From assembly GCF_018977255.1 (NCBI RefSeq), contig NW_024705318.1, positions 1 to 54,541 on the forward strand: a DNA stretch of 54,541 bases. The letters run 5' to 3'. The notes below the pieces were generated by a model. That model was given only the letters and a program-made list of their open reading frames with translations. It was not told the origin of the DNA and made no database searches. How positions within the stretch are numbered: the first letter of the stretch is position 1; every line of letters begins with the position of its first letter. This document shows positions 5,860-54,508 of the stretch, piece by piece. Origin of the DNA: Callorhinchus milii (lineage: Eukaryota). A program made the position numbers and the translations under genes.

Positions 5860-6400
5860 CTGAAACCCAAAATCACAGGCTCATTCACACATCGTCACCG
5901 ACTCGGTTGAAACCCTTCATAATGTGCGTTCGACATCACAGCAATGGCCAATCTGTCAGCGAAATAGCGACCGTTTGGGACACACAGACTCTTCGGATCA
6001 TTCCACCTATTCATATATGCACCTAGTTATATATATATATCTATATATATAAACGAGAAAGCTTTGTCGGGCAAGATTCACCCCTTTGCTCCCTGGGACC
6101 TGGCCTTCAGATCAGAGAGCTGCGCCACCTTCGTCAGATTTGCACAAGACCTTTCTTAGCTGGTAGGAGCGACAGTGACGACAAATGACACCCGTACCGC
6201 GCCCGTCAGGCCGGAAAGAGGGTCCCAGGGCGCCGCAGGCACGCCTCACTTTGACACACAGTTGGAACGTCACAAGGCAGGACAACCCAATTGCAATGGG
6301 ACACGCCGCCAATTCCCATTCTCACGCTCTCTCAAATCTGCCAACCGCTCAATCACAAACGGCCCTGCCCGCCCGCCCGCCCGGCCGCGTTCTGTCTCGT
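5860..6400 (+). promoter_or_regulatory. Putative CA-rich intronic enhancer upstream of the paralogue poison exon
   Basis: Scattered CACA/ACAC motifs (atcacaggctcattcacacatc, gacatcacagc, gacacacagac, ttgacacacag, aatcacaaac) at the position equivalent to the HNRNPL cluster. Less dense than the HNRNPL cluster; boundaries approximate. Confidence 0.45.
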
Positions 6401-6570
6401 CGAAACGAATGTCCTGTTGTGTGCTGTAAGCCGCCGTTGTTTTGACCGACCGATCGATTTGATATGTTTTTCGAACAAAGCGAATAAAGAACCACCACGT
6501 GTGCAGAGAAGCCATTCTAATTGTGATCTTTTGTTTCTCTGGTGTCGATTTACTGTAAAACATGAGACAG

Positions 6571-6673
6571 GGTTGAAGTGTCAAGCCTTGTGTTGAACCT
6601 CCTTGCAGCCCCGTATGTTTGATGGAGAGCCATCTTTCAAACTGCCCCTTGTTGGCTGTTGAAGCATAAATTG
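6571..6673 (+). other. Poison (PTC-containing) cassette exon of the hnRNP L paralogue, homologue of HNRNPL exon 6A
   Basis: Boundaries acag|GGTTGAAG ... TGTTGAAGCATAAATTG|gtaagg. It aligns to 23666-23735 (TATGTTTGATGG..CCATCTTTCA..ACTGC..GCTGTTGAAGCAT). Assuming the same phase-1 entry as in HNRNPL, there is an in-frame TGA at 6594-6596. A second acceptor at 6608|6609 also leads to a TGA. Confidence 0.8.
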
Positions 6674-7207
6674 GTAAGGTAATGTGCCCAAGGACCTTGT
6701 TCTCTAGTGCTGCTGTAAGTAGATCCCTTTTATATATATACATATATATACCATCTACCTACTGTACTAGTTCCGTCTGAAAACTCTGGCATTTTTTTTT
6801 TTTAAACGCGCTGTTCAAATCGACTTGTAACTGCTCCGATCGCTATTTGATTGATTCTCGCAGATGTCTGCAGACAAATTCTTAACCTAGTGCTGGAAGC
6901 GGGGTGGGTGGGTGGGTGGGTGGGGGGGTGTGGGGGGTGGGGGTGTGGGTGGGGGTCTTGCCGTCTCTCAATGTGTTTCATTCGCAATCACTTTTGTCTG
7001 AAAATCGGGTGCAAGAATGTGACTTCCCTTTGCTTGCGTTCCTTTTGTTTTCCAACCTCCCCCCTCCCACCTCCNNNNNNNNNNNNNNNNNNNNNNNNNN
7101 NNNNNNNNNNNNNNNNNNNNNNNNNNNNNNNNNNNNNNNNNNNNNNNNNNNNNNNNNNNNNNNNNNNNNNNNNNNNNNNNNNNNNNNNNNNNNNNNNNNN
7201 NNNNNNN

Positions 7208-10200
7208 GCAAACGGGCCAGGCAGCCCGCCTTGCTAGGCGACGCCCCTTCTGGCTTCGGTAACACGCGAGGCTCCGAGTGCAGGAGGACAGGTGCGCAGT
7301 CCACACGTGGCTCGTTTCCGCGTCCCTCTCGAAGCGCGGCTCGTTTTCAAACCCTCGCCAGAAAAAAAAAACGTACCTGCGCTTCGTCCGCAGGGTGTCC
7401 ACAAAGTCCTGTTACCCACTTCCCGGGCAGGGCGAAATGTTGGACGTGTTTCGTTACTCCACACGCAAACACGCACGCGCGCGCGCGCGCACACACACAC
7501 ACACACGCCTCTGTTACCCAACAGTAACTAGGAACCCGGTTTGTTAGTCGATAATCCGGGGGTAATAATCCCACCAAAGCAGTAAATAAATAATAATAAT
7601 AAATTGGTCACTTCAATCCACGGCTTACGCGGGAGGGACGTCGCTGGGCGCAATTGGCCGCCGCGTTTCGCCCGCAAAACGTACAGTCGCTCCAGTTTAC
7701 GGTGTGTCCCGTGAAGCGCTTTGAGACGTCTCAAAGATGTGGGAAGGCGCCATGTCAGATGCAAGGGTTTTTTTTTTTTCTTTTTTGCATAGGACCGGGA
7801 GGAGGCCATTCAGCCCCTCGAGCCTGTTCCACCGTTCTATTCTGTGAGATCACGGCTGATCTGTGCCTCAACTCCCAATTACCCGCCTTCGCCCCATATC
7901 CCTCGATCCCCCGACCTAACAAACATCTCTCCACCTCAGTCTTGACAACGTGAATGGATCCACAGCCTTTTGGGGCAGAAAGTTGCAGAATCCCACTAAC
8001 CTTTGGATGAAAAACTGCCCCCAATTTCACTCCGAAATGGCTTGGCTCTAATTTTAAGATGTTACCCCCCCACCCCTTGTTCTGGATTACCCCCCAACCC
8101 CACCAGAGGAAATAGTGCCTGTGTAGCTGTCAGTCGAATCTCTTTATCATTAGAAACACCTCAATCAGATCACCCCTCAACCTCCTAAAAACACACGGGA
8201 ATAGAGCCCCAAGTTTACGCAATTTAACCCCTTTAAGCCCTGGTATAATTCTGGTAAATCTGCGCTGCACCCCCCCCCCCCACCCTTATAAAGCACTGAC
8301 CAGCAACTGGAACATGTGGAAGTGTGACGATAATTGTATTTAGAAGTACTTCATTGTATTCAGCACGAGCGTTTAACTGGACCGAAGTGGAGTCCCTGCG
8401 GTGTAGTGGTCAGAACATTGGCTCCGCGAGCGAGAGGAGCTGGGTTCGATTCCCAGCAGGGCAAAACGTTGGGCAAGTTTCTTTACTCACACACGCACAC
8501 ACACACACACACGCCTCCGTTAGCAGTAAGCAGGAACCGAGTTGTTAGTCATTTGGCGGATGGCTTTTCCGGGGGTAATAGTGTCTTTTTTTTAAAAAAA
8601 ATGTGGTCACTCAATCCACGACTGTTTGCGCGCAATTGGCTGGCGCGTTTCGCCCGCGCGATACACAGTCACTACGCTTCGCAGTGTACAGCCGTGAAGC
8701 GCTTTGAGGCGTCTCAAAAGAGGTGATAGCTCGCCGTATCATACGCAAGGATTATTATTATTATTATTATCATCATTATCATCATCATCGCTGGCAGCTT
8801 TTTTCAGCTCCCTCCGTAGTGTCGTATCGCTGTTTTGTAACGGTGGGAGGTTAAGAGGACTTTGTGGACACCTCCTTGTTCTCCCCCCTTCCAACCCCCA
8901 CACCCACCACACACCCCCCCCTCCCCGTCTCCTTAAGTGATGAGAGTGTTGAGTGGCTCCTGTGTAAAATTCCCCTCGTCCAGTGAACTCCTCGTCATCC
9001 CGTACTCACTGTTTGTCTCTTCGCTCAGGCTCTGGCTACCCACCTTCATCATATCACAGCTATTACGAAGATGAGGATGACTACGGGCCAATATCTCACT
9101 ACGAGGGGAGGGGAATGGGACCCCCCCCACCACCTCCTCCCCCACCAATGGGGGGCTCGCGAAGAGGCCCGTCCCGGCGCTATGGACATCCGTACGGCCC
9201 CCCGCTCCCTCCCCTGCACGATGATTACGGCCCCCTGGCTGACAGTCCGGTGCTGATTGTCTACGGGCTGGACATGAAGAGGTTAAACGCAGACCGAGTG
9301 TTCAGCATCTTCTGTCTGTACGGCAATGTGCATAAGGTACGCGTCACCTTCAAAGCCCTCCACGGTCTTGCTCCCCCTCGACCGCTCCGACCTCCTAACC
9401 CCGTGTCAGCCTGTCCGCGCTCTCCGCTCGACGGACACCGGCCGTCGGGCATTCCCTCTCTCTCTGCCCCCACACTCTGGAACTCTAACCCCACAATCCC
9501 TCCGCCTCACCCCCTCTCTTGCCTCCTGCAAGTCCCGTCTGGAGATCTTCCTCTTCGACCGTGCCTTTGGCCACCCCCCACCCTCCCTGACATATACAGT
9601 CACTACACTTTGCAGTGTATCCTGTGAAGCGCTTTGAGGCACCTCGAAGACGCGATAAGGCGCTATGTCAAATGCAAGGATTATTATTATTATTATTGTT
9701 CTAATAATTATGTTTCAGGTGAAGTTCTTGAAGAGCAAGCCTGGGGCTGCTATGGTGGAGATGGGAGATGGGTTTGCAGTCGACCGAGCCCTGACTTGCC
9801 TCAACACCAACAGCTACCTGTTTGACCAACAACTAAATGTCTGGTGAGAGTACCTGATGATCGTTCTGCGCAGTTGGTCTTAATTAGCTCTGCAGAGTTT
9901 CGCGACTGGGCTTACACCTGCGTAGCTCAGTGGTTAAAGGCTTCGCCTCGCAAGCAAGAGGACCCCTGGGCTCGTTCTCCCCCTCACACTCCCTCTCTCT
10001 CTCTCTCTCCAGTGTATCCAAACAGAAGGTCATAGTCCCCGGTCAGTCGTTTGAGATGGAAGACGGCTCTTGTAGTTTCAAGGACTTCTCCAACAACCGG
10101 AACAACCGGTTCACGAACATGAAGCAAGCCGCCAAAAATCGCATCCAGAAACCCAACAACATGCTTCACTTCTTCAGCGCTCCTCCGACAATCACAGAGG

Positions 10201-12488
10201 AGATATTCTATCAGGTTCGATTTCAAGACCCTCTCCACTTGTCTTCAAATCCCTTCACCCCAAACCCTTCCCCTCTTCGACCGTGCCTGCGGTCACCTCC
10301 CCCCCCCGCCTCCGTGTCGCGCTCCACCAACAGTGGGACGTTCCCCTGCGTGAGGGGCCCAAGTTTGTGCGATGGAGGCTGAGATCTCTCCCTGGGGTCT
10401 GAACAGTTTTGTGGGTTGTGCGGAGAACCAACGAGTTCCTCGCTTTTGTCTTCCAGATTTCTGATGAGCTTGAGGTGAAGAAGCCGAAAAGTATTATATT
10501 TTTTAGCGGGAAAAGTAAGTCACTCCCATCACCACCATTGTGCTGAGAGTGTTTAATGTGCTTGGGTTATTCCTGCATTCCTGGGTGATGATTGTTCCTG
10601 GGCGTCCGTTGCTTTCTCTCTATTCCCCCGCGGAAGTCAGTAATTGGAATGGCGGGAAGTGGTCACTCTGCGCACGGGAAGTGTCCTCAGCAGCGACCGT
10701 ACAACTACATCAAGTGCAAGGGTTAATAGGATTATTATTATTAGGATTATTATTGTTACTCTCGCTCTCTGGGCTGCGGTTCTTGTACAAGAAGGCGGCG
10801 TTGACCTTATACTTCCGCTTTCTTCCATGTTGCGTGGCCTTCCTCCAACCCGGTCCAGATGTGTCAAAGTCAACCCAAGGTAGGTCCCAACTCGCTGCTG
10901 TTCTCCCTGCCCTCCACCCCTCCTGATCCCAACCCCCCCCCAACTCAAGTCCAAATCCCTGACTGTCCAACGTCTTGGGACGTCCTTCCCGACGTGAAAG
11001 GCGCTGTACAAATGTTATTTTGTATTGCATTCTGATATTGGCTGCTTTGCTTCATTTAGCAGTTTGGTCAATGGCGGGGGCGGGGGTGTGGGCGGGGGAT
11101 TTATTCTCAATTTTAATTACATCACGTCAGCGTTTCATTGAGAATTTATTGTTTGGACATTTATGTCATTTTGTGATAACTCCTTCCAAAAAAATAATAT
11201 TTCAATCCACGACTGGTTTGTGAGTTACTGCTGCGTTTCGCCCACAAAGGACACAGTATATTCTGTGAAGCGCACGGAGGTGGTTCAGCGACAGAAGGCG
11301 CTATATCAAATGCAAGGATTATTATTATTATTATTTTAAGTGGAATTTGGAATAACTGCTGATTGGAGTCCTGTAGCTCAGGGGTTAGAGCACTCGCTTT
11401 GCAAGTGAGAGACCTGAGTTCAATTCCAGGCAGAGGGCGAAACCTTGGGCAAGTTTCCTTACTCCACACAGAGCCTAATAATAATCCCTCCAAAAAAAAC
11501 CAATAATAAATTGGTCATTTTCAATCTACAACTGTTTGTGGGACATTGCTGTGCGCAATTGGCTGCCGCGTTCGCCCACAAATACACAGTCAATTCACTT
11601 TACAGTGTGTTCTGTGAAGCGCTTTGGGCCGTCCTCCCGACGTGAAAAGCGCTATATCAAATGCGAGGATTATTATTATTATTATTGTTAAGGCAAAAGA
11701 TTTATGGAACGATTTTTTCTTCCTCCTCTGTGCCCCCTTCCTTTCCTCGGAACTTTCTGCGTTTCAAGGTGAGAAGAGTTCTTCTGGCTTGCTGGAGTAT
11801 GAATCGAAGAGTGATGCTTTAGAGGCTCTTGTTATGCTCAATCACTACAGGCTAAAAAATCCAGGTAAGTGTTCCCAGAACAGCCAACGTCCAAAACTGC
11901 ACACGATAAGAAAGTGGCATTTGCGTGGCGTCCTGTCGCTCAGCGGTGAGAGCACTCGCCTCGCAAGCGAGAGGGCCCGGGTTCGATTCCCGGGCGGGTC
12001 AGGCGAAACCTTAGGCAAGTTTCCTTACTCCACACGCGCACACTTAGCAGTGAGTCAGAACCCGGTTGTTAGTCGACTGGCGGATCGCTTTCCGGGGGTA
12101 ATATCTCCTTCCAAAAGGTAATCAGAATAAATTGGTCACTTCAACCCACGACTGTTTGTGGGACACTGCCGCGCGCAATTGGCTGCCGCGTTCCACCCAC
12201 AAAATCCACAGTCACTGCACTTTACGGTATACCCTGTGAAGCGCTCTTGAGACGTCTCGAAGACGTGATGAGGCGCTACATCAAATGCAAGGATTATTGC
12301 TGCGGACTTTGGTGTCGCTGACCGTGCAGTCCAGCGATTTGGGACGTCGTCCTCAAGTGAAAGGTGACGTGCAAGTGTAATTTGTCGTCGTTGTTTGTCG
12401 TCGAACACACGTGTCCTAAACGGTAACCTTCCTTCGGACAGATGGACCAGATCTGTTCACTCTCAAGCTGTGTTTCTCCACCACCTAA
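7208..12488 (+). CDS. hnRNP L-like paralogue (tandem duplicate), exons 7-13 only: linker, Pro-rich region, RRM3 and RRM4
   Basis: Exons join(<7208..7258, 9029..9336, 9719..9843, 10013..10214, 10457..10514, 11769..11864, 12442..12488). All introns are GT-AG and the frame stays open. It reads [16 protein letters not shown] / [31 protein letters not shown] / [24 protein letters not shown] / [25 protein letters not shown] / [19 protein letters not shown] / [21 protein letters not shown] / [14 protein letters not shown]. Exon sizes 202/58/96 equal those of the downstream HNRNPL. The 5' end of exon 7 is in the gap, and exons 1-6 are not in the window. Confidence 0.9.
7788..8270 (-). mobile_element. 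CR1-type LINE 3' fragment
   Basis: Reverse complement of the same 3' UTR and ORF2 end as at 1370-1665. Confidence 0.75.
8389..8790 (+). mobile_element. SINE copy
   Basis: tRNA-like head with GGGTTCGATTCC, GGGCAAGTTTC core and (TTA/TCA)n tail. Confidence 0.8.
9342..9590 (+). mobile_element. L2-type LINE 3' fragment
   Basis: FKALHGLAP...APTLWNS...[15 protein letters not shown], the L2 ORF2 C-terminal pattern. Confidence 0.7.
11365..11689 (+). mobile_element. Full-length tRNA(Ala)-derived SINE (reference copy)
   Basis: Head TGTAGCTCAGGGGTTAGAGCACTCGC-TTTGCAA-GTGAGAGACCTGAGTTCAATTCC (A-box, TGC anticodon loop, B-box), a conserved core, a 3' hairpin AGCGC..ACGT..GCGCT and a (TTA)n tail. Confidence 0.9.
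11929..12298 (+). mobile_element. SINE copy
   Basis: Head GCTCAGCGGTGAGAGCACTCGCCTCGCAAGCGAG, core, and tail GAGACGTCTCGAAGACGTG...ATGCAAGGATTATT. Confidence 0.85.
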
Positions 12489-12879
12489 TCCCGACTGAGC
12501 CCAGAGACGTCAAGGCCCCCTCAACGATCATTGCTTTCCACGTAAAACAATTTTTGTTCCCCCCGAGTCCAAACGATAATTTTTTTTTTTTTTCTTTTTT
12601 TTTTTTATTCACCGGATGCGGCGGCTTCTTGGAGTACAATTTGTATGTTTTTCAGCCAGACGGCAGAATTTTGTTATACTCTGTCCTGTAGTTTTTCTTA
12701 GAATTATTGGTTAACAAACGTGTGTTGCATTCCGTGATTCAAGTGTTGAAGATTGTGTGATTGTTGAATTACTGAAAGACGCACTCACTCCTGCACTGTG
12801 TAAAACTGTACACTAAGTGTGACAGCTATTAAGTATTAAGTAAAAAGGTCCTTTCAGTCCCGGTGGTTCTTTGTGCATT

Positions 12880-13232
12880 GGTGTCGGTGGCAGAAAGAGG
12901 ACGTGGGTTCGATTCCCGTGTCAGGGCGAAACTTTGGGCCAGTTTTCTGACCCCACTCGCCTCGTGTTTGCCTCGCAGTAAGCAGCCAACCGGGTTGTTA
13001 GTCGGTTGGCGGATCCCTCTTCCCGGAATTATAATTATAATAACTTGGTCCCTCAATTCCACGACTGTTGGTGGGGACGCTGCTGCGCGCAATTGGCTTC
13101 CGCGTTTCGTCCACAAAACATACAGTCAGTTCGCGTTACAGTATATTCCGTGAAGCGCTTCGAGACGTCATCAAAGGCGCAATAAGGCGCTAAATCAAAT
13201 GCAAGAGATTATTATTATTTATTATTATTATT
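12880..13232 (+). mobile_element. SINE copy
   Basis: B-box GGGTTCGATTCC, core and (TTA)n tail. Confidence 0.75.
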
Positions 13233-14241
13233 ATATTCCCATCGGTTGGTTTCCACGCGCTTCAGCACTCATTTTACCGACCGGGGGGGGGGGGGGGGGG
13301 GTTTCGCTCCACGTAACGATCAAGTGTTGGCACATCAGGAATTGACAACTTGGGGAGTCTGCGCGTTGTTTTTGTGACTCCTTCACCGGTGGTGGTGGTG
13401 GTGGGGGTGGGGGGGGGGGTGGGGTGTGATGTTCCTCGGCAGACGGTGTGAGCAAGTTTGAATAAATTGCTCCTAAATTGAGATCCGAGCGTACGTGACG
13501 CAGCCTTGGAGCTCCGGGGTGAAGAAATCTGCATCCGCGCTAGGACAGTTGAGACAGGAATAGGACAGGTCACGGCGCACGAAGCCTTGGGCAAGTTTCC
13601 TTACTCCACACGCGCGCGCACGCACACGCGCGCGCGCCTCTGTTAACCTGGGGGGTGGGGGGGTAACAATTCCTTCGAAAAAAATAAAAGGACTAAATCA
13701 ACCAAATGATAATTTGGTCCCTCAATTCCACGACTGTTTGTGGGGACGCTGCCCGGCGCCGGGTTTCGCCCCGCGGTCACCTCACTTTGCAGCGTATCCC
13801 CGGGAAGCGCTTTTGAGACGTTCCCTTCGACCGTGCCTTCAGCGCCCCTCGCGACTCTCTTACCCCCTCCTCGCTCCCCTCCCTCCCCCCCCCCCGACCA
13901 TTCCCCCGCCCTCCCCCAGTGCTCGGGTCCCGAGCCGACCGTCCAGCGCCCCGGGACGTCCTCCCGACGTGAAAAGGCGCTCCGTAAATGCAATCGCGGC
14001 GGTGGTGGTGTTGTTGTCGTCGTCTCGTCGACGCGACGGGGGTCGAATGCGAGGATTGTTATTGTTTTTATTCGCGGGGGGGGGGGCGGCGGCGGTGGTG
14101 GGGGTGGGGGGGGGGGGGGGGGGAGACGGCAAAATACCGCAGATGCCGGAAGTGGCCGGGAACACGCAACGGGTCAGGCAGCATCTATGGAGAGAGAGAG
14201 AGAGAGAGGACAGTGACTTAAGGATTCTCCATAGATGCTGC

Positions 14242-14587
14242 CCAATCAGTGAAGGAGGACCAATCAGAGGGCCGCACACCTCGCCGCCGGGGCCAATCAG
14301 AGCCCAGGGACGCTTGACGCGGAGGTCCAATCACGAGTCGAGGACAAGGGGCCGGGGGGGAGGGGTCGCTCGGCGGCGTCCAATCAGAGCGGAGGAAGCT
14401 TCGCGCCGGGGACCCAATCAGAGCGAAGCCAGCGTCACGCCGCGAGCCGGGGAGCGCGCGGGGTCCAATCAGGGTCGAGGACTGGACCAATCGGAAGCGG
14501 GGAGGGAGGGCGGCGCCCCGGTCAGAGCAGCCAATCAGAACGGACGCGGACGGATGGGCGGGCGGGGACTGCGCGACGCTGGCCAAT
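14242..14587 (+). promoter_or_regulatory. HNRNPL promoter: ten same-strand CCAAT (NF-Y-type) boxes in a CpG island
   Basis: CCAAT at 14242, 14260, 14293, 14327, 14380, 14414, 14465, 14487, 14531 and 14583, mostly in the context CCAATCAG. The array ends about 120 bp before the ATG at 14706. Confidence 0.85.
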
Positions 14588-14705
14588 GAGCGTCGAGGAA
14601 AACGGGGGGGGCGGGGCCGGGACGAGAGCGAGGGGGGGACCGGGGGCTGCGCGCGCAGCCGGTGTGCGGGCGGGGGAGGGGTGTTTTTTTTTAAGCGCGC
14701 GCGCC

Positions 14706-17700
14706 ATGTTGTCCGCTCGCAGTCACAGCGAAGCCGAGGCCGGCGGCATCGAGGAGGGCGAGATGGCGTCCACCAGGCAGCAGATCTACGACGGGCGGGC
14801 GGCCAAGCGTCAGCGGACCGAGAACGACGGCGGCGGCGGGAGGGTGAGGGCGACAAACGTCGTTTATCCGCGCGCGGGTGCGCGAAAAAAAACCAACCCC
14901 CCCCCTCCCCTCCCCCCCCACCACCGTCCCGTCGTTTTCCTTCCGACGGGAGGGAGGGGAGAGGAGAAAAGAAGATGGGAGGAGGGAGGAGGAGAAGGGG
15001 GAAGGGGAATGGCGGCGGTGGGAAGGAGGGAAGGAAATGGCGGCGGTGGAGGAGGAGGAGACGGAGAGGAGTCGAAACGACCGTTGGGGTTTTTTTTCTC
15101 TCTCTCCTGTGTGTGTGTGTGTGTGTGTGAGGTAAAAGAAAATGGCCGCCGTTTGGTGGCGTCGTCGAGCGGGAGAGAGGGAATGGGGGGGGGGGAGGGG
15201 AGGGAGAGAGGGGGGGGGGTAGAGGGATGAGGAGAGAGGGGGAAGCGGGAGAGAGAGTGAGTGGGGGGGAGGGAGGGAGGGACGGGGGGTGCGGGGGGCG
15301 GAGTAGTGAGGGAGAGAGGGGAGAAGAGCGGGCGCGGCGGCTCCCAATATCTCTCTCTCTCTCCCCCTCAGTGCGTCTCTCTTTCTCTCTCTCTCTCTCC
15401 CGTTTTTTTTCCGCCTTCCTCTCGTCACCCCCCAACGCGCGCCGGGGCGGCCCCCAGGCCCGAGGCCCTTCACCTACCACGTGGCTCCCTCTCTTCTCCC
15501 CCCATCCCCCCCCCCCCCCCGCCCCCCTCCTCAACAAAAGCACACGCACAGCGTCTCCTCTGTCCTCCCCTCTCATGGCCTCTTCTCTCCCCTCCACCAC
15601 ACAAAAAAACACCCACCCACCCACCCACACAGCGTCTCCTCTGTCTCTCCCCTCATGGCCTCTTCTCTCCCTCTCCCCCCCCCCCCCCACCACACAAAAA
15701 AACACACACAGCGTCTCTGTTCCCCCCCTCATGGCCTCTTCTCTCCCCCCCCCCCCCCAACAAAAACACACACACACAGTGTCTCTGTGTCTCCCCTCAT
15801 GGCCTCTTCTCTTCCCCCCCTCCCCCCCCAACAAAAACACACACACACAGCATCTCCTCTGTCTCCCCCTCATGGCCTCTTCGCTTCTCTTCCCCCCCCC
15901 CACAAAAAGAACACGCACACAGCATCTGTGTCCCCCCTCATGGCCTCTTCTCTTCCCCCCCCCCCCAACAAAAATACGCGCACACATACAGCGTCTGTCC
16001 GTCCGTCCCCCTCATGGCCTCTTCTCCCCCCCCCCCCCCCCTCCCAACAAAAACACGCACCAAAACAGCGTCTGTCCCCCCCCCTCATGGCCTCTTCTCT
16101 CTCCCCCCCCCCCAACAAAAACACGCACACACCCAGCGTCTGTGTCCCCCCCCCTCATGGCCTCTTCTCTCCCCCAGCCCCCCAACAAAAACACACGCGC
16201 GCGCGCACACACATCGTCTCTGTGTCCCCGTCCCCCCCCTCATGGCCTCTTCTCTTCCCCCTCCCCCCCCCCAGCCTTTCTTTCCCCTTCCTTCTCTTCT
16301 CCCGCTCCCTCTTTCTCCCCCCTCATGGCCTCTTTTCTTTCCTCCCATCCTTTCTTTTTCCCAATCCTTTCTTCCCTCCCTTTTCTCTCTCCACCCCCCC
16401 TCTCTTCTCTCTTCCACCCCCTTCTCTCTTCCACCCCCCCTCTCTTTTCTCTCTCTCCCCCCTCTTCTCTTCCCCCACCACCCCCTCAGCTATTTTACCC
16501 CCATTTCCCCTCCAAAGGGAATGTTCATCAACATGACATCAGGTGCAGTTGGACGTCATGGGGACTTGCCACAAATGGCATGTAGATTGTGCTGCTGACT
16601 TGTTTCTTCTCTCTTAACATAGGATGGTGGTTTTCTCGAAGACCCTCACAAGCCATCACCATCGGCAGTGGTCCATGTGAGAGGGCTGTCTGATGGCGTA
16701 ATGGAGGCAGACCTGGTGGAGGCACTGCAGGAGTTTGGTGCGATCAGGTAAACACGAGTTGGGATGGGAACGGAAGCCCGCGAACGGGGGAAATCCGGAG
16801 TGGTAACGCTGTGTGGGGAGAAAAAGTGGTCAATTTACTACGCCTATTTGTGGGGCACCGCTGTGACACAATCGGCTGCCGCGTTTCGCCCACAAAGTTT
16901 ACGGTCGATTTACTTTGAAGGGCCTCGAAGACACGATAAAGCGCTGGGTCAAAAGCTTGGTTTGGGCTCGGTTGCAAAGGGAATGTTTAACCTTACGAGT
17001 GTTTTGCCTGTTCTTAAGTAGGACCATTTTTAAGAATTTCTGCGGTCCATTACACCAATGCATACATTGCGTGTTGCCGAATGCAGCAGCTGGTCATGCC
17101 TTTGAGTCGAGCTGGTCCCTAGTTCCACTCCTCTTATGGCAGCGTTCATCAGCCGCAGCTGGTGGTGCAGCGATCTGCTGTGTTGGTTTCCGCGTGTGAA
17201 GGACATGACTGGCTCTTTGCTCCCAAGGTGGAACCTTACTGAGTTGTTTCCCCAGTTTACCTCTTGCCCCCACAGCTGGGGGTTACGCTTTTTAAGGTTC
17301 CCACAGACTTTATGAATTGGTCTTAAATGATTTAATAATGGATATTATTAAAAATGATTCACCCAGACCGCGCTAAGATCAAGGAAATAATAATTCTTCA
17401 GCAGTGTTGGATTATTTTAACTCATTTACCCGCGTCCCCACCGTTGTACTACCGCGTCCTGACCCCGATGTGGTTGGTGTGCGCAGCTATGTGGTGATGA
17501 TGCCCAAGAAGCGACAGGCGTTGGTGGAGTTTGAAGACCTGAACGGAGCATGCGCCTGTGTCAACTATGCAGCCGAGAGCCAGATCTACGTCGGAGCCCA
17601 GCCTGCCTTTGTCAACTACTCGACCAGCCAGAAGATCTCCCGGCCCGGCGACTCCGACGATTCCAGAAACGTCAACAACATCCTTCTCTTCACCGTGATC

Positions 17701-20700
17701 AACCCCGTCTACCCTGTTACAACGGTCAGTGATCTCCTCCCTCGGCAGCCAACGGTGTTCATTGTTCGGGAGGGATTTGCGACCGATGCTGCGTGTTGGT
17801 AGGGAGGGGTGAGCATAGCAGCCAAGGCTGGTGGTGGCGGAGGAGCCGAAACATTGGTAACTAGGCCACAACGTGAGACACGCACAAAGTGTGTTGGAGT
17901 TACTGCCTGCTGGTTGCTCTGCTTGTTTCTCAGTGTTGATGTGCATGCGATTCTAGCACCTTATTGTGTCGGAGGTGTTCACCGCTTCCCCTGGCGCTGC
18001 ACCAGCAGGTACTTGCAGAAAGTTAGTTAAGTGCCAGCACAGAGGGTGCAATATCAGTTTGTGTTTGTGCACGGGGGTGGGTTACTTCCTTGCGTTTAGA
18101 TTTCATTTGTTGTGGTACGTCGGTTGGCAGATCGCTTTTCCGGGGTGGGGGGGGTGAGTAAACCCTTCCAAAAAAATAATGAAAAGAGTACAACTGTTTG
18201 TGCACCATTGGCTGCCGAGTTTCTCCCACAAAATATAAGTCAATTCACTTTACGGTATATCCTGGGAGGTGTTTGTTTTGTGAAATGATTTTGAGCTGTT
18301 GGTTGTGCAAGTTGACATGGCCTCATATGGGTTTGGGTTCTCTCTGCACGTGGGGAAGCTGGAGATGAGCGGGTGATGGGTGTCAATACTTCAACTGACT
18401 GACCTGTTCTCTTCCAGGATGTGTTGTACACCATCTGCAATCCGTGTGGGCCTGTGCAGAGAATTGTAATATTCCGCAAGAATGGAGTCCAAGCAATGGT
18501 GGAATATCCTTCACGTAGACGGCTTCAAAAGGCCCCTTTTAAGGGTTTTGTTTAACCTGATCTTGCCTCCGTTAGCGTTGTCTTTGAAGAACGGGGGGGG
18601 ATTGATGTGCGTGCTGCTGGCTGAGGATAGTCAAGCACTTGTCTCCCTCCCCAATCGCTGATTTGGTGGCTCTTTTGCTGTCTGGATCCTGTTGATCCGA
18701 TGCTAGGAGTCCTGTGGTTAGAGCACTCGCCTCGCAAGCGATAATTTGGACACTCAATCCACCCTTAGAGCTCTCACAACCCCCGCACAGTAAACTCCTG
18801 ATAACTTGTCCCTGGCTTAACTGGTCACTACCAATTAACCCATCACGTAGTCGATATCCTGTCCGCATTTATTTATGCATTTATAATCCAAGTCCGTTTG
18901 TGGGGTGTCGCTGGGCGCAGTTGGCTGCCGTGTTTCGCCCACAAAATACACATTCAATTCGCTTAAGAGTATACCCTGCAAAGCGCTTTGAGACATCTTG
19001 ACAGCATAATAAGGCGCTATTTCAAATGCAAAAATGCTTATTATTACTAAAACAACAGAGCTTCTGTGCGTTTGTTGCTGAGGCTGTGTCAGAACGCTCT
19101 GGAAGCCTCCTTCAGCCGTGCCTAATTTGGCACGAGTTTCCAGCTTTGTAAGGGTTTACGCACGTCTTGTGTGTGTTTTTTTTTGTTGCGTCCTTAACTT
19201 CAAGCACATTCGACTCAGTGCAGAGTGCTCAGAGAGCCAAAGCCTCTCTCAACGGAGCCGACATTTACTCTGGGTGCTGCACTTTGAAGATCGAGTACGC
19301 AAAGGTAGGAACTCTTCGTTTACAGCTTTACCTTTGTGGGTCTGTAAGGGGACGGCAATAAGTTGAATCGCAATCGTGTTATCGCCTTGGGACGAGTCAC
19401 GACTAACCTATGAATTGTTCCTTGTAGCCTACTCGTTTGAATGTCTTCAAAAATGATCCAGATACTTGGGACTATACGAACCCTAACCTGGGAGGACAAG
19501 GTAATATCATCCGTTTAGTATGCGATGTTTTAGATTTACTGAATGCTGAATGAATTTAGTTGACTGGTGCCTTTTACTGTGCGGACACATTTCCATTTTA
19601 TTTTTCGGAAACTGCATCCACATTTAACCCTACAACCATATTTTACAGTTCTAACTTTGGTGCTGTCAGTTATTCTCCTGAGTTCAGAAAAGCTTCCAGC
19701 AACATTGGACTGTTGTGGCCCATAGACTTTAGAACCCAATTTGTCCGGTCCTGTGGGGGTGAGGGGATTGGAACAACTTAATTTCCGTTGGTTTGATGGA
19801 AGGGATCCCAACTCCAGCACAGAGATGGCCTTGTTCTGTGCTGTAAACTTCTACGGTTCGAATTTCTGCCTTTTTTCTTTTAAAAAAAAAAAGACAAGTC
19901 AGTGAATCGCTCTTAAGCCCAGTGTTCAGCCTGCTTTGCATGGCAGGATAGATTGTCTTACCAATTTTTTTTTTTGGTGGGGGGGGTGGGGGGGCGCTTC
20001 CTTTTTTCCGCTTGAAATAGTTCTGTCTGTCTGGCGTGCTGTCGTGCAACAGCTGTCGACTCCACTCCGGATGCTCTCCGTGCCTCTGATCAGCTTTAGT
20101 GGTGGGTTTGAAGTGCATTCAAACTTCCCCCACTCGTACTTACACACTTTTACTCTGAAGCCACTTATGCCGCAGCCATTGATCTTNAAAAAAAAGGAGC
20201 CAAAAAGAGCCCATTTAGCAGCCTCCATTTTGCCAACGCGTAGGATTTGAAGGTGTCCCCGAGTGCTGTTCAAACGAGTGCTTATCCACTGAGTCCAGTT
20301 TTCATCGGTAGGAATTTCGGGCTTAAACCGGTGCTTTGTGTCATCCAGGGCAGCCTCTTTCTATCCAGCGTTCTGTGCAGCAGCTAAATACTTTCTTGGA
20401 GGCTTGTCCTCTTGTTGGAGAGAGATTTTCTTCATTGGTTTTGGTAAAGTTTTCAGACTTCAAGCCAGCCGCGACGAGACAGCTCACGTCAAGCCTTCCA
20501 GTTTTACTTTACTCACTGATTAATATTTCCGACCTTTCCACGATCGCAAGCTTATTTCTGTGCAGGGTCCCGACAGCCCAGAACTTGCCCCTTCTAATAA
20601 AGTCGTCCGTCTGGGTGTGTCATTTTCTAGGTACTTGGAAGGAAATGGTTGTAGGCGCACATCTTCCTGCTCTTATCTGATCGTGAGGTGAAACGTGCAC

Positions 20701-23700
20701 TCAGTACTGTTCAGCTAAGTGGCTTTTCCATACACCTAAAGCCTTCGTTTGCAGAGGATCTCGAGTCTTGTGTGGAGCTTTTCTCCGGCGCTCTACCCAT
20801 TGCATCCTTTTCAGGTTGGGTTGCAGACGACTGTAATTGTACAGTGTTCCAATGAGCTTCCCGTTGTATTCTCGGGGGTGGGTGGGGGGGCGGTTGTGGG
20901 AGGTGGGGTGAGATACTATGGCCAGAGGTGGTGTTCACCATGTGGAATGGCCACTTTCGACATTCCCGAGAAAGAGGCAGAACAAACCCAAATCATCGAG
21001 CGCGGTCCGCGCGACGTCCTCCGAAAACCCTCGGCGGGTGGCAACTCCAGGAGGGATCGCCCGAATGAGCACCGCGAAGGTTTAGGAGGCGTTCGGGACC
21101 CCTTCGTGTAGTTGGGCCACTACTTTCAAGTTGCGGTGGTGTGGAGCCCTGCACTTGTGGCAGCGCTGCCTTGGTTTAAAAGCAAAATGTTGCTGGAAGC
21201 TTTTCACACTTTGCAAAGATGTAACAGGGTTTGACTTTCCTTGGTTCCAGTTCATCCAACGTCCTTAGCTCGTGCACTGTCGATTTCGACTGGTTTCCAC
21301 GGAATGGGATTTACTCCTTCACATATGTTCCGATATGAAGCAAAACCTTATGATTGGGGGTTGGGAGGGGGGGAGAGGGAGGGAGGAGAAGGGCGATGTC
21401 GCTGTCTGAATCTTGTACAGAAATGTTCTTGAGCAAAGTTGTAACAGCCGAGAGTGCCTCGTTCCTATCCTTGTTTGTGTAAGTGCCCTCTTTTTTTTTT
21501 CTCTCTCTCTGGGGCGCGGTCCACGGCGGTGCGTTTCACTCTCGATGGGGGGCATATTTGTCTTTCTGTCTCGCTTTTGATATTTTTTTTGAGGGGGGGG
21601 GGGGAAAATACAATTCCGGTTCATTCGCTCGCCGAGGAACGCGCGTGGCCGCCCGTCTCCAGCTTCCAGAAAGATGTTAGGCGGTTTCGCTATCGGTTCG
21701 CATTGTTAATTTACCCTTTTTTTTAACTTCCTTTCCACCCTCGTTAACGGATCGCGTTGCGGAACTCGCCTTTTTGCAGCTAATTAATGCCTTCGATCGT
21801 TTTGCGTGAAGTGAATCCCACCAGCTGGCAAGTGCCCTTTTGCCTTGGTTGCTCCTTACTTAGCTGCGGTGGTAAACAACTAACTACCAGTTGCATATTG
21901 ACTACAGTTTACTGCTTGTAATCCATTGCCACCCTGACGTCCAGCTCTTTTTTTTTTTAATGAATAAAATGGGGCTCGGGGCTTGGCGTGCTTTTGCAGA
22001 GCAGCGTGTTACTTGGTCTATTGCGGCAAACAGCCAGTGTCGACCGAGGCTAAAGGATATCTCGGCCGCTCATAAATGCTGAGGCGGTGCTCATTCACCC
22101 CCACAAGACATTCTTTTCCGAATAGCCGTGTGCTTCGCCGCCGCCTGACTCGAGTAAAGCGCTTTAATAAAATGCGCCCTGCATTCTCTCACGAGGCAAA
22201 CGAGTGGAAAGTCAAACCTGAGCTTTTATTTTTGACAGCCCAAACCGTTGACTGTAAATTTGAACTGCATGGAATTAATTGACCAGCCTTTCTGGTTTCC
22301 ATTGAATTCTTTCCATTACTGATGCACTGCAGAATGGGATTTGTGTGTTAATAAAAAAAAAAAGAAAGTCCTGTCCCGAATCTAATCCTGACGTGCATTG
22401 TTCACCTTTTTTTACTGTGCACACTTAGTGCAGTACTGCTATTATATAATGCCTTTGAGATGAATGTTGCGTTGCCTGCAAATTGAAATCAATGCTGACT
22501 TTCAGCCGGGTGGCATTCCTCGTTCGATGTGGGGAGCGGTTTGGTGGCTTTGTGGGGGGGCGGGGGGGGCAATTGTGACTTATTTTTGTGTGCCCGAGAT
22601 CCATTTTCGCGGTTAAATGTTGCGGCTAGCACTAAAGAGCGAAGTTGATTTTAAGCTTTGTTTTGTTGGCATTATATAATAAAAACCATTTGCTGGGTAA
22701 GGGCACACACAGTGCAGCAAACTAGGCAGATCTTTGTGGAGAAGCAAACAACAAACTTTCCTCATGTCACAAGAACAAGAGCAAAATACATCCATCCAGC
22801 GTGCCATACATTGACTTTCCAAGATATTCCCTGCAGCCACCGCGACCCGACATGCCATGATTTACATACTGTGAGGCCACTCCACCATTTCCCTGACTTC
22901 AGAAGTGAAGGTAATGGAGGTAAACAAAATGAGGCACATTCGCAAGAGATGTAACTGTGTCCACTTGCAAGAACTCTTCCGGTACGAGGTCAAAAAAAAA
23001 ATCAAAAAAACAAACCAAACCCAAAAAAAAAAACACTGCCTCGCACGAACTGACACAGAATTTGGGGCGTTTGAACCCCCTCACTTTTGCTTAGAGGCGT
23101 TTGTGATCCTAAGGCGAGTGGGTTTACACAGCGCTCTGGACGCACATGCTGAATATCCTACCTACCTACCAACCAACCTACCTAACCTGCTGAAACCCCA
23201 CCAGTCTCTACACTCCTACATTTCAGAGAACAACATTCAGGTATCTGCCATAAGCAGGTGCTACTCGGCAACACGCAGCTTCACCAGGAGGGAGAAAAGG
23301 CACATTGTGTGAGGCACATGACTGCAGCCATTTTGCGACACATTCCCAAATGGTACACCACTTCCATTTTGGACACCTATGTGTGGGAGATGTACACAGA
23401 TCCTTACCAAGTAAGTCTCGCCACCACAGAGCCCAAGACCAACACATCCAACACTAAGGAGAGCGACATGGAGCAACACTTGAGTCTCATATTCACAAGC
23501 TTTTACAGAACCATTTTTGACATCTGTGGAAGAATCTCTTTTACCTGAACGTTGACTGTTTTTTTTTTAAAAAAAAAGACACTTGTGTTAAATGGAATTG
23601 TTAGAAGCTGGTTCTTTGCGTCATGTACAAATTTCTATTCATTACTGTAAAACCATGTAATGCAGGGTTGAAGCATATGTTTGATGGGCCGCCATCTTTC

Positions 23701-26700
23701 AGAACTGCAATAAGTTGCTGTTGAAGCATTGGGTGGTAAGGAAAAAATGCAGAAATGTTGTGCACATGGACGTTGTACTCTAACTCTGGCTGTAAGTAGA
23801 CCTTTTTATGCCTTGTACCTTTGTGCCAATAGATCTGTTTAGACTTTGATGNTTTTTTTATATATTACTGTATGAATCTGATCGCTTTTAATGATATTGT
23901 ATAGTTCTTTGTGTATACTGTTATCAACGGGACAAATTGTAAATGGTTCTAATGTTGTACTGGTTTTCTTCTCTTGCTGTTTCCTCTTTGTAACTGTTTA
24001 TGACACTTGTAAATTGTCCTTGCGAAAGTTGTGTTTGATTGCTCAGCGGCAGCTCTGTGCAGTGCTAACCTTTATTTCTTTTCCCCCTCTCTTCCCACGC
24101 CCCTCTTTGTTTTTTTTTCCCCCCCTCCTGCAGGAGATCCCAACAAGCGCCCGAGGCAACCCGCTCTACTTGGGGATCATCCATCTGAATTTGGTGAGTT
24201 TGAATTTGTGGCGTAGTGGTTAGGGCGCTCGCAACGCAGGGGAGAGGACCCCCGGGCACGACAAAACCTTAGTCAAGTTTCCTTACTCCACACCCAGTTG
24301 TTAGTCGTTCGGCAGATGGCTTTTTTCCGGGTTTAACCCTCGCCAATCTTGTTTCTTGTATCAGCGACTTTCTTCGGACAGTGTGCTGGCTAAGGTTGAG
24401 CATTGGTTCAATAATGAAAAGTAAGTAGTAGTAATAATAATTTGGTCACTCAATTCACGACTGTTGTGTTTCGCCCACAAAACATAGTCAATTCGCTGCA
24501 GTATATTCCGCGAAGCGCTTTTGAGACGTCTCGAAGACGTGATAAGTCGCAATATCAAATGCAAGGATTTTTATTATTAATACACACTCGGCCTATTCGG
24601 CCCGAAACAAATGTCCTATCATTTCTACCCTCGCACTCCCTACTTTCTTCGTGGGTAACGAACCAGTGGTAAAATGTAGTTTTGAGTATTCTAGCGCGCG
24701 GTTAAATTAACTTTGAGTCGCTGTATAATCTGCTGGAGGTTTTCCACACGATAGAGGACGAGTTTTAAACCAAGTTTGCTTTGCTTTTCAGGAGCCCCAC
24801 AAGGTGGTTACAGTCATTATCCTGAGGAAGATTACGGCCCACCTGCCCATTATGAACGGCGGAGGATGGGGGGACCCCCTCCAGTAGGGGGTCCCCACAG
24901 GGGTCCCAGCCAGCGCTACGGCCCTCAGTACGGCCCGCCGCCTCCACCCCCACCTCCGGAGTACGGCCCCCAAGCCGAGAGTCCCGTGCTGATGATTTAC
25001 GGCCTGGAACCTGCCAGGATGAATTGTGACCGAGTCTTCAACATCCTGTGTCTGTACGGGAATGTGGAGAAGGTGCGTAGGCTATAGAGACTGGTCATTT
25101 TGCTCTGAAAACGGTGGCTAAGGCTCCTCCTCATGTTCGGGGTTGGTTGGTGATGAGTGTTGTGTTGGAAACCCTGACTAGTCAGTCCTATGCGCACGCG
25201 GTGGTTAGAGCGATCGGCTCGCAACCGCAACAGCTAATATTTGTACAGTGCCTTGCGGGAGGGCGTCCCAAGGCGCTGGACGGTCAGGGTTTTGGACCCG
25301 AGCCGGGGGTTGGGACCAGGAGTGGTGGAGGGTGGGGTTGCACACTGTCTTATTTGTCTCTCTCTTTGCAGGTGAAGTTTATGAAGAGCAAGCCTGGGGC
25401 TGCTATGGTCGAGATGGGAGATGGGTTCGCAGTGGATCGAGCAATCACTCACTTAAATAACAATTACATGTTTGATCAGAAGCTAAATGTTTGGTAGGTA
25501 ATTTGTACCTTCACGTTCGGGGCAGGGGGCTTGTTTGCTGGGTAGGTTTCTTTGGGAAGGGGGACCTAGAGGGTGGGGAGGTGTTGACCGGGCACGGTCG
25601 AAGAGGAACACCTTCAGGTGCGACTTGAAGATGGGGGCACGGCGGAGGGATGGAGGGGGGGGGAGTGTTCCAGAGTTTCAGTGTGTAGTGGCTTCATCGA
25701 CATTTGTTCCTGGGGGTTAGTCCAGCTTCAGTGTGGAGCTGGGGGTGCGTTGTATTACGGATGGTGACGTGCTTCGGGTGAGACCTGGAACCGAGCCACC
25801 CAACAGGGGAGCGGGTGATGAACTACGACGTGGGTGGAGGGGGGGGGGGTTGGGCAGAGGGCGGTGTGGCTCCTCTGTAAGCGCTCGGTGCTGACCGTCG
25901 GTGTGTCTGTGTGTGTGTGTGTGTGTGTGCGTGTCTGCTCACAGCGTATCCAAGCAGCAGTGCATCATGGCCGGCCAGTCCTACGAGCTGGAAGACGGCA
26001 GCTGCAGCTTTAAGGATTTCACCGGTTCCAGGAACAACCGGTTCACGACTCCCGAGCAGGCCAGCAAGAACCGCATCCAACACCCCAGCAACGTGCTGCA
26101 TTACTTCAACGCTCCTCCCGAGGTGTCCGAGGAGGCTTTCTACGAAGTACGTAGCGGCTCGGCTCCCTTTGCGTCGTCGGGTCGTCGGCCGCCGCGTTTC
26201 GCCCGCGGAACGTTACAGTCAATTCGCTTCGCGGTGTGTGCTGTGAAGCGCTTTGAGCCGTCTCGGAGACGTGATCAGGCGCTGTATCAAGTGCCGTTGC
26301 TATTAATTTCCTTTGTCGCCGGCGGCCTAACTCCCCAACGCGGCGCTGGGTGTCAAAGGTGCTGTGCTTTGGGTGAGGCGTTCAAGGCTAGGTTCCAACC
26401 GCCTGTTCGGATGGACGTTAATAAAATAATAATAATACTTGCGTTTCATACGACACTGTTGAGACTTCACGCAATATACTCTTCCAACAGTGGGTTGACT
26501 GTTTTGCGGGCGAAACGCGGCAGCCGCCTGCGCGCAGCGGTGTCTCGCAAGCAGTCGTGGAATCAAATTATTATTTTTTTTGCCGTGAGTTATTGCCCCC
26601 CGGGAAAGAAATCTGCCAGTCGACTAACAGCCGGGTTCCAATTTACTGCTGGGTGAACAGGCGTGCGCGCGTGTGTGTGGAGTAAGGAAAATTGCCCAAC

Positions 26701-27847
26701 GTTTTGCCCTGACCTGGAATCGAAGCCAAGTCCTCTGCTTGCGAGGCTAACCATTACACTGAAAGATCTCGGGTGCACCATTCAGGGGGGAAAAAAAAAA
26801 ACCTCATTGAACACACCCGTTGGCGGGAGGTGGGAATTCTTAACTCTTCCATCGGCGGGAAGGATTGTACGGTTTCTGGAAACTCGGGGTGTGTGAGCTC
26901 CCGGTTGGGGGGGGGTGGGGGGGGGAAGGCGCTGAACGCCGCAGCCTCCCGTTTTGAGTCGAAAGCTGCCCGAGCCCCTCGTCTGCGGGGGAAATCGGGT
27001 TGGGGGGTCCCTGGTGGGGATGTCTCTGTGACGTATCTTCTCTTCTCTTGTGTGTTCCAGGTCTGCGATGAGCTGATTTTGAAGCGGCCAGTGGCATTCA
27101 AATTATTTTCAGGCAAGAGTGAGTACTTTTAAGATGTCTGTGGTGTGGTCTGGTCTCGCTGTCTGTTAGGGCTTTGGCCTGCAGGGCTAACGGGCTGCTG
27201 CGGGGTAAGAGTCACCGCTCCCAGTGACTGCTTCCCCCTGTTCAAGTCCTGCTGATGAGCCGAACCGAGTTGGTTTATCGTCATCAGTGCCCTGGAGTCC
27301 TGTCCTGCAGACAAGTCTGGCTCAGGGACTGGGCTTCAGAGAGAGACTGCCATCCCATGCAGACACTACAGAGTTATTGGCCCATCTTGAACCCCCCCCC
27401 CCTCCCCCCTCCCACCCACCTATATAACAGCACTAGATGAAGGGAAGGTCCATCCAGTTTGCCTTCCACTATCCTCACATGTTGTTTCCCAAACTATATA
27501 CTGAATCCCCCGATATTGTTTCCTTCCAGAAACCTTGTCTCATTTGTTCCTGAAAGAATCGACACTTTCTACTTCCTCCATCTCCCTAGTAGTATACATT
27601 TACTACTCTCCCACTGTTGTATAGTAGTGTTTCAGTTTTTTTAATATATATATATGTTGTGTGTGTATGTGTTGTGTGTGTATATATCAGCAAAAAGTCG
27701 TGATATCTGTAATAATGATCCTCGCATTTGATATAGCGCCTTATCGCGTCTTTGCGACGTCTCAAAACCTTTCACAGAAATACCTAAAGAACCCCCCCTC
27801 AAATGTCATTATTTCTTTGTAATGGTATCACAACTTTTTGGTTATTC

Positions 27848-27904
<57 letters not shown>

Positions 27905-28655
27905 ATACATAAGTAGTGTTATTTGTGTTATGTATATATATATATTGTGATATATATATACGCAGAAATGTCTTCCTTAACTTTTCCGACTGACTTGGAA
28001 GTATGTTGTTGAAGCGTGGATGTGCAGCTTCGCCTTGAATCCAGCCCGTTTCCTCTCGCAGGTGAAAGAAGTTCCTCGGGCCTGATCGAGTGGGACTCCA
28101 AGAACGATGCCGTGGAAGCCCTGGCTCTGCTCAATCACTTTCAGATGAAGAACCCAAGTACGTGATTCTTCAGAGGGAAAGATTGGAATGGGGGCGTTTT
28201 AATGCGCGCCCGTTTATTTGGGGCTTAAAAAGCAGTTCCGTCGCCGGGAACCACACCAGCAGGTCAGGCGAAAGGGGTGAGAAGGCGACGGAAAAGTCGG
28301 GTGGGGGAGGATTCAGGAGCTGACGGGGGTCGGTCGGTGCCGGTGATGGCGGAAGGCGACAGTGGGAGGTTATGAGGAAGAAAAGCTATGTCTTCGAGAA
28401 CCAGGGGATGTGCGAATGGTGGTAGAGGAAGGAGGTGGGGTGGGTTGGGGGGGAGGGCCAGGCTGAGAGGAGGTGGTCCGGGTCTGCACGTCAGGCGTCG
28501 CCGCCGTTGGGCGCTGCCCCGCACGGAGGGCGCCGTGCGAGCGCGTCGGGTCGGCTGTCGTGTTCGCGTCTTGACTTGTGTTTCTCCCTTCACCAGGCGG
28601 ACCGTACCCGTACACCCTGAAGCTCTGCTTCTCCACTGTGCAACACGCAGCGTAA
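14706..28655 (+). CDS. HNRNPL: Heterogeneous nuclear ribonucleoprotein L (4 RRMs), complete, 544 aa
   Basis: join(14706..14843, 16623..16747, 17487..17724, 18418..18503, 19208..19304, 19428..19500, 24134..24193, 24792..25072, 25372..25493, 25945..26146, 27061..27118, 28062..28157, 28597..28655) = 1635 nt, with phases consistent. Diagnostic peptides: [116 protein letters not shown]. An alternative in-frame ATG lies at 14763. Confidence 0.96.
15545..16335 (+). repeat. Minisatellite in HNRNPL intron 1, about 11 units of 65-85 bp
   Basis: CTCATGGCCTCTT recurs 11 times, usually followed by a poly-C run, AACAAAAACAC(AC)n and AGCGTCTCTGT. Confidence 0.9.
18504..19207 (+). other. U12-type (minor spliceosome) AT-AC intron, HNRNPL intron 4
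   Basis: 5' end ATATCCTT at 18504, branch site TCCTTAAC at 19191-19198, and terminal AC at 19206-19207. Splicing restores MVE|FDSVQ in frame. Confidence 0.95.
18706..19048 (+). mobile_element. Degenerate SINE inside the U12 intron
   Basis: Head GGTTAGAGCACTCGCCTCGCAAGCG and tail AAGCGCTTTGAGACATC...AAATGC...TTATTATT. Confidence 0.7.
22690..23530 (+). promoter_or_regulatory. CA-rich cluster (hnRNP L binding, autoregulatory splicing enhancer) in HNRNPL intron 6
   Basis: Dense ACAC/CACA/ACAT motifs (gcacacacag, aatacatccatcc, ccatacatt, tttacatac, ctacactcctacatt, gtacacacc-like, aacacatccaacac) in otherwise T-rich intron, directly upstream of the poison exon. This matches the known mammalian HNRNPL intron-6 architecture. 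Confidence 0.8.
23666..23735 (+). other. HNRNPL: HNRNPL poison exon 6A (70 nt, NMD-inducing)
   Basis: gcag|GGTTGAAGCATATGTTTGATGGGCCGCCATCTTTCAGAACTG...GGGTG|gtaagg. Read in phase 1 after exon 6, it reaches TGA at 23722-23724. Size and position match the known 70-nt mammalian exon 6A. Confidence 0.9.
24205..24580 (+). mobile_element. SINE copy
   Basis: Head, AAGTTTCCTTACTCCACAC core and tail. Confidence 0.75.
26422..26765 (-). mobile_element. SINE copy
   Basis: Reverse-complement head and core with (AAT)n tail. Confidence 0.75.
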
Positions 28656-32568: not shown

Positions 32569-32829
32569 CTGTGGGGATCGGCCGCACAACGCACAGTCAC
32601 TACGCCCCGCAGCGCGTTCCCGCGCAGCGCTCCGAGACGCCCGGGCGGCCCGCGCTGAGCCACCGGCCGGGATTGTCGTTTTCCGCGGGTCACGAACCGT
32701 AACAACGCACCGAGCGCCGAACGGTACGGCCACGACGACGACAACGCCGACAACTTGCCCTTATGCCGCCTTCCCTCCACGGCTCACAGCGCTCAGCAAA
32801 GGCGGGGCCCGACTCCGAGCTGCGGTGGG

Positions 32830-49640: not shown

Positions 49641-49671
<31 letters not shown>

Positions 49672-54486: not shown

Positions 54487-54508
54487 CTGTGGAGGAGAGC
54501 GATTTGTA

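Follow-up and report, generated by a model that had tools for sequence, protein, structure and literature searches.

A tandem hnRNP L-type paralogue of HNRNPL in the elephant shark and its candidate poison exon

Rossbach et al. are said to have described in 2009 how human HNRNPL autoregulates through its exon 6A, by splicing coupled to nonsense-mediated decay (NMD). In the entries of a supplementary table that covers these genes, human hnRNP L binds upstream of its own exon 6a and promotes the inclusion of that exon; knockdown of HNRNPL lowers exon-6a inclusion in its paralogue HNRNPLL and raises HNRNPLL mRNA and protein; and human HNRNPLL (LL) binds the HNRNPL (L) intron in vitro and is entered as a cross-regulator of L exon 6a (PMC10123112 Table S1). 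The subject here is a locus in Callorhinchus milii, the elephant shark, at which this system appears to have a further member. The window, meaning the whole stretch of DNA that was analysed, is a complete contig of 54,541 nt (NW_024705318.1, C577 of assembly GCF_018977255.1, called G000 below). It carries HNRNPL itself (gene B) and, upstream of it on the same + strand, a second hnRNP L-type gene (gene A), and intron 6 of both genes contains a candidate poison exon, the two exons being homologous.

How does this locus compare with the systems already described? Gene B resembles the human HNRNPL exon 6A system, in that its intron 6 holds, downstream of a strong CA cluster, a stop-carrying exon of 70 nt with the same position and length; it differs in that its inclusion and regulation are predicted here from sequence, and the exons were matched by length. 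The relation of gene A to gene B resembles that of HNRNPLL to HNRNPL, its cross-regulator, since gene A is a paralogue with a homologous poison exon in intron 6 and this exon shares its 5' segment with the elephant-shark LL exon. Unlike HNRNPLL, however, gene A lies in tandem with HNRNPL on the HNRNPL-ECH1 contig, its protein is of L type and has a Pro-rich linker, and the gene has been found only in cartilaginous fish, where it would make a three-gene network. Teleosts also have a second L-type gene, hnrnpl2 beside hnrnpl, but this is a separate, younger duplication. The logic of paralogue dose control is shared with PTBP1/PTBP2, RBM10/RBM5 and RBFOX2/RBFOX3, pairs that appear in one source, as far as it is cited here, as cross-regulated via splicing-coupled NMD (PMC6547761); these belong to other families, whereas genes A and B lie 2.2 kb apart in tandem. 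Gene A thus joins the known L/LL poison-exon system, whose mechanism is itself known from human L and LL. Gene A is apparently undescribed: no description was found in the literature searched, with subscription papers mostly outside its coverage, and databases already carry an automatic 'hnRNP L-like' label.

Gene A beside HNRNPL

The evidence supports an intact, spliced tandem paralogue of L type rather than LL type. As the initial annotation had claimed, gene A ends about 2.2 kb upstream of the HNRNPL ATG on the same strand, the distance from its stop codon to the first ATG of gene B being 2,217 nt. The further claim of seven intact exons with matching phases stands for the frame, which is open, and for the phases, which equal those of gene B, but an eighth exon, a microexon of 21 nt, had been overlooked. 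Across exons 7-13 and the microexon there are zero internal stops, AG/GT ends are present where visible, and the coding sequence with the microexon contains the RefSeq protein P0089 exactly. The exons in the window are the following.

7208-7258 (+): exon 7, visible part; tblastn with the shark orthologue P0002, 83% identity; acceptor hidden in a run of N
9029-9336 (+): exon 8, Pro-rich linker and start of RRM3; tblastn and frame; in spliced contigs of runs X8 and X10
9719-9843 (+): exon 9; tblastn with P0002, open frame
10013-10214 (+): exon 10; 100% identity to a Callorhinchus milii UniRef protein, 94% to Heptranchias; in spliced contigs
10457-10514 (+): exon 11; tblastn with P0002, open frame
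10859-10879 (+): microexon, 21 nt, encoding 7 aa in RRM4; AG/GT ends; no counterpart in the aligned B-type proteins
11769-11864 (+): exon 12; tblastn and frame; in X8 and X10, spliced to exon 13 at a GT..AG joint
12442-12860 (+): exon 13 (coding 12442-12488) and 3' untranslated region; stop codon 12486-12488; AGTAAA hexamer at 12839

A short RRM4 insert is also seen at the position of the microexon in paddlefish, bowfin and teleost hnRNP L (P0018, P0122, P0116 and P0011 in alignment A2).

Is gene A transcribed? Expression of the upstream copy, which the initial annotation had left to be checked, was found in two of the four runs examined, X8 and X10, which come from one study; none of the runs listed for this sequence is recorded as RNA, and the RNA nature of these two rests on the spliced joint. 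In both, contigs connect exon 8 with exon 10, and exon 12 with exon 13 at a GT..AG joint. Between exons 10 and 13 the contig of X10 is longer by 21 bases, the size of the microexon. In X4 and X5, exon 8 is uncovered and exons 9-11 are barely covered; the records are filtered, and this carries no weight either way.

The initial annotation had also proposed looking upstream for exons 1-6 of gene A. The window, however, is the whole contig and begins inside intron 6, so that these exons fall outside it, and with P0002 as the query tblastn found no match in the window ahead of position 7210. Searches of G000 with exon 3 of gene B and with P0002 returned only B, LL (on C3), a fragment on C4 and a weak match on C5, and the missing exons are most simply explained by an assembly gap. 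A processed gene A fragment, consisting of exon 11, the microexon and exon 12 and containing a stop codon, lies at L018:3756-3887 (G000:C4, ~42297756).

The nearest relatives of gene A form a protein cluster of 28 members from sharks and rays (14 of the 15 members listed are full-length, at 526-564 aa), and the gene B type forms a separate cluster of 36 (15 members listed). Over 256 aa, the chimaera and Heptranchias A proteins share 88% of their residues; identity is 66-69% between the A and B types, and 53-82% between the coding exons of the two elephant-shark genes. That gene A might be an assembly duplication or a recent copy is ruled out by this divergence together with the shark and ray orthologues. 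Among 391 proteins compared, the A type was the best match of 18, every one of them chondrichthyan; a protein family search comprised the best 120 of 809 matches, which limits the weight of the restriction to cartilaginous fish. Judged from these sequences, gene A is common to chimaeras, sharks and rays. A and B proteins have adjoining accession numbers or equal-sized contigs in ten accession sets among those listed, an example being GCC31420.1 and GCC31421.1 of Chiloscyllium punctatum. This indirectly suggests, as read from protein accessions and not from shark DNA, that the tandem pair is conserved across sharks and rays.

What kind of protein does gene A encode? The A type has 68-70% identity to L types versus 58% to LL. 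Within the window gene A encodes RRM3/4 only; the shark orthologue P0002 has the same five Pfam families as L and the four-RRM layout, and it matches the solved RRM1, RRM2 and RRM3/4 chains of L. In alignment, A-type proteins retain the Pro-rich linker between RRM2 and RRM3, which LL is described as lacking in the cited part of one paper (PMC7547044), and the RRM1 histidine equivalent to H105, a residue termed critical for CA binding in the part of another that concerns it (PMC5570063). At thirty positions, 11 full-length A proteins are invariant and differ from all 18 comparison rows. These positions include the equivalents of Y130, N172, N507 and K533 (human numbering, mapped via a beaver sequence), residues with a putative role in RNA binding. 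The view of the initial annotation that the paralogue is L-like and not LL-like therefore holds for the protein; the poison exon, as described below, is partly LL-like.

Candidate poison exons and the proposed control of the two genes

The elements of intron 6 on which the regulatory argument depends are these.

5600-6400 (+): gene A, region of moderate CA richness, a candidate for binding by hnRNP L; peak of 39 CA and 13 motifs per 400 nt
6571-6673 (+): gene A, candidate poison exon, 103 nt; AG/GT sites; in-frame stops at 6594 and 6660
6579-6611 (+): gene A, 33-nt segment of the poison exon, absent from the B exon; matched at the corresponding position in the HNRNPLL poison exon
6683-6733 (+): gene A, conserved intronic element downstream of the poison exon; B homologue at 23759-23809; 0/2000 shuffles
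22500-23600 (+): gene B, CA cluster; peak of 52 CA and 32 motifs per 400 nt
23666-23735 (+): gene B, candidate poison exon (exon 6A), 70 nt; AG/GT sites; in-frame stop at 23722
G000:C3:71545225-71545314: elephant-shark HNRNPLL, candidate poison exon, 90 nt, or 104 nt if a second donor is taken; AG/GT sites

The homology of 6571-6673 to the gene B exon, proposed in the initial annotation, was upheld by blastn (71% over 136 nt, E 1e-14). Shuffled sequences scored as high in 0/2000 cases for the exon, 0/2000 for the downstream intron and 1/2000 for the upstream intron, and the remainder of intron 6 cannot be aligned between the two genes. Each exon has a length of 1 mod 3 and carries an in-frame stop 11 nt from its end, with several junctions downstream of it; the frame of the gene A exon assumes the phase of gene B intron 6. 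Human HNRNPL exon 6a (chr19:39332253-39332322) is given as 70 nt in the table entry for it (PMC6547761 Table 1), the same length as the gene B exon, and for exon 6a of human HNRNPLL the coordinates in its entry give 83 nt (PMC10123112 Table S1).

Poison exon A also matches intron 6 of elephant-shark HNRNPLL over its full length (67%, E 6e-7), at a candidate exon that has a CA-rich patch ~2.8 kb upstream. The same search with the gene B region gave no match at the LL exon, but in pairwise comparison the B exon does align to it (0/2000 shuffles). For the 33-nt segment, within which a possible internal acceptor ends at 6608, the alignment to LL was equalled in 3/5000 shuffles when anchored by position and in 131/5000 when unanchored against the whole LL exon. 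The long form of the exon is thus probably ancestral, the 33 nt having been lost in the B/HNRNPL line. An A-specific insertion of these 33 nt is disfavoured by the alignment to the LL exon.

Which protein would act on these exons? By analogy with human L and LL, the gene B protein would bind the CA-rich intron 6 of both genes and promote inclusion of the poison exons, to be followed by NMD; it would thereby cap its own level and hold gene A down as HNRNPL does HNRNPLL. Feedback of the A protein on gene B is possible and would be expected to be the weaker arm. That the B protein limits itself and represses A is modestly favoured over the alternatives taken together, with binding, inclusion, decay and direction all carried over from the human genes.

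The CA content of the two introns bears directly on this. Background was taken from 68 overlapping 400-nt intron windows, with a mean of 5.3 motifs, a maximum of 15 motifs and a maximum of 37 CA; the motif set is that of hnRNP L selection work, and the windows were read after a first look. None of the 68 is as high as the gene B cluster. The LL intron 6 peaks at 15 motifs and 55 CA. In a symmetric reciprocal circuit, the A and B proteins would bind both CA regions with similar effect and the summed dose would be buffered. The retention of the module in both genes speaks for such a circuit, as do the four-RRM layout, the five L Pfam families and the H105-equivalent histidine of A, and the table entries for human LL, in which it is given as a cross-regulator of L exon 6a and as binding the L intron in vitro. 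It is nevertheless an unlikely account, because the CA region of A is much weaker (13 versus 32 motifs per 400 nt, with a background maximum of 15) and A-type proteins carry the 30 fixed differences, among them the Y130, N172, N507 and K533 equivalents, which may have a role in RNA binding. The same two observations make repression of A by B likelier than the symmetric loop. Homology of the two CA regions was also considered and found no support in any alignment.

Could the gene A exon be functional under some other control? Three forms can be imagined: regulation by the A protein alone with a shifted RNA specificity, another factor acting on the LL-like 33 nt, or mainly retention of intron 6. 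The A-specific RRM changes and the LL-like segment with its internal acceptor would fit the first two. For retention, contigs cover intron 6 of gene A from 5700 to ~6250-6380 in 4/4 runs, and contigs run through the donor of the poison exon. Such contigs may be ordinary pre-mRNA or DNA, however, and L-driven inclusion has a precedent in both known paralogues, as far as the cited entries describe them; other control is quite improbable, more so than the symmetric circuit. In X8 and X10 the contigs break at 6568/6597, as they might at a branch from exon 6 to the poison exon. The break was not used as evidence, because an A>G difference at 6567 falls at the same place and the listing shows no loose end there. 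The A>G differences between contigs and genome, at 6567 (four bases before poison exon A; X8 and X10) and at 6208 (X8), could be an allele or RNA editing.

It is very unlikely that the poison element of gene A is a disused relic, or that chimaera A has been truncated at its 5' end and is decaying. In favour of this, G000 yielded no exons 1-6 of gene A, databases have only partial models of the chimaera A protein (146-256 aa), no poison-exon joint is among those listed, and the end branch of chimaera A, at 0.15, is longer than those of shark A proteins. Against this, the contig simply starts in intron 6; the frame is open, the protein is 88% identical to the shark orthologue, and the mRNA is spliced; and the exon, both splice sites and the downstream element are still recognisable, though the A and B coding exons are only 53-82% identical.

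Several observations weigh against repression of A by B. The poison exon of gene A is known from one genome only, and the human exon 6a was compared with the gene B exon by length only. The CA region of gene A is modest: background windows are as high in 0/68 cases by CA and in 2/68 by motifs. It cannot be aligned with that of gene B, since 500/500 shuffles score as high. Among the 15 of 473 joints listed (repeats dominate the tables), none enters or leaves the poison exon of gene A, and the two contigs over the exon run past its donor into the intron. The absence of the joint speaks neither for nor against inclusion, because NMD targets are scarce and contigs tend to omit scarce forms. Finally, exons 1-6 of gene A were missing from G000 with both queries, exon 3 of gene B and P0002.

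The age of the gene pair

When did genes A and B part? Three trees were built, one of 48 rows in a quick version, one of 19 rows and one with lamprey and teleost LL added, and in all three A and B are separate, strongly supported clades. A tree of this kind had been proposed in the initial annotation. It sets A apart from teleost hnrnpl2, which is nested inside ray-finned-fish L with support of 99-100, and groups A with L in the best topology. An orthology of gene A and teleost hnrnpl2 is ruled out by the trees. In the lamprey Petromyzon marinus, an hnRNP L-like protein (P0216 cluster) is annotated on several small contigs, which suggests a multi-copy locus.

The tree with lamprey and teleost LL has the form LL,(A,(B,bony L)), with support of 85/84 for B plus bony L, compared with 63/77 on 19 rows. 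The grouping of A with L to the exclusion of LL has support of 80/81 and 87/90, and of five fixed topologies compared under three models on a set of 22 rows, LL,(A,(B,bony L)) scores best. Two points count against an early duplication. A shark-only clade of A and B is not rejected in the approximately unbiased test (p-AU 0.131 on 19 rows, 0.07-0.15 under the three models), and the stem of A is long, at 0.43, which could pull A rootward. A with LL is likewise not rejected (p-AU 0.125 on 19 rows, 0.11-0.17 under the three models), nor are A with bony L and A outside LL plus L.

The poison exons offer a second line of evidence. The human exon has the length of the gene B exon, and the loss of the 33 nt, hence the A/B duplication, would therefore predate the split of sharks and bony fish. 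Tree and indel agree, neither being decisive, and it is fairly probable that the tandem duplication is older than this split. Gene A would then likely have been lost in bony vertebrates. A broader and more tentative picture, which we put at rather less than an even chance, is that of a third ancestral hnRNP L gene, lost in bony vertebrates and kept in cartilaginous fish under strong selection, with altered RRM1 and RRM4 surfaces, a private microexon, the ancestral long exon 6A and a distinct RNA specificity, as part of a three-node NMD network.

HNRNPL, its neighbours and the place of gene A

The remaining features of gene B are listed here.

14200-14705 (+): gene B promoter region, CpG-rich, with 10 CCAAT boxes, all on the + strand
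14706-28655 (+): gene B, HNRNPL, 13 coding exons, 544 aa by the exon model; RefSeq isoform P0088 is 91% identical to Mustelus P0007
14706-14843, 16623-16747, 17487-17724, 18418-18503, 19208-19304, 19428-19500, 24134-24193 (+): gene B exons 1-7
24792-25072, 25372-25493, 25945-26146, 27061-27118, 28062-28157, 28597-28655 (+): gene B exons 8-13

Intron 4 of gene B (18504-19207) has AT-AC ends and is of the minor-spliceosome type; an AT-AC intron of this kind is also found in mammalian HNRNPL. Intron 1 contains a tandem repeat at ~15500-16260 with units of ~60 nt.

Beyond gene B, the contig shows two probable orientation errors. Exons at 32113-32570 (-), between two N runs, and later exons at 34991-37245 (+) belong to an ECH1-like gene, and the first of these blocks is likely a flipped piece of scaffold. 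An hnRNP U/UL1-like gene has its first exon at 39853-40000 (+) and later exons at 42835-49740 (-), probably another mis-oriented block. Two exons at 53820-54490 (-) resemble those of a cytochrome P450 family 2 gene.

What does gene A add to the hnRNP L family? It brings a deeply conserved splicing regulator into the evolution of jawed vertebrates. Its poison exon is a link between the exon 6A of L and that of LL, showing their common origin at the sequence level, and marks the 33-nt piece that the HNRNPL line probably lost. With the A/B pair, nature offers a case in which to follow the inheritance and re-tuning of poison-exon feedback once a gene has been duplicated.

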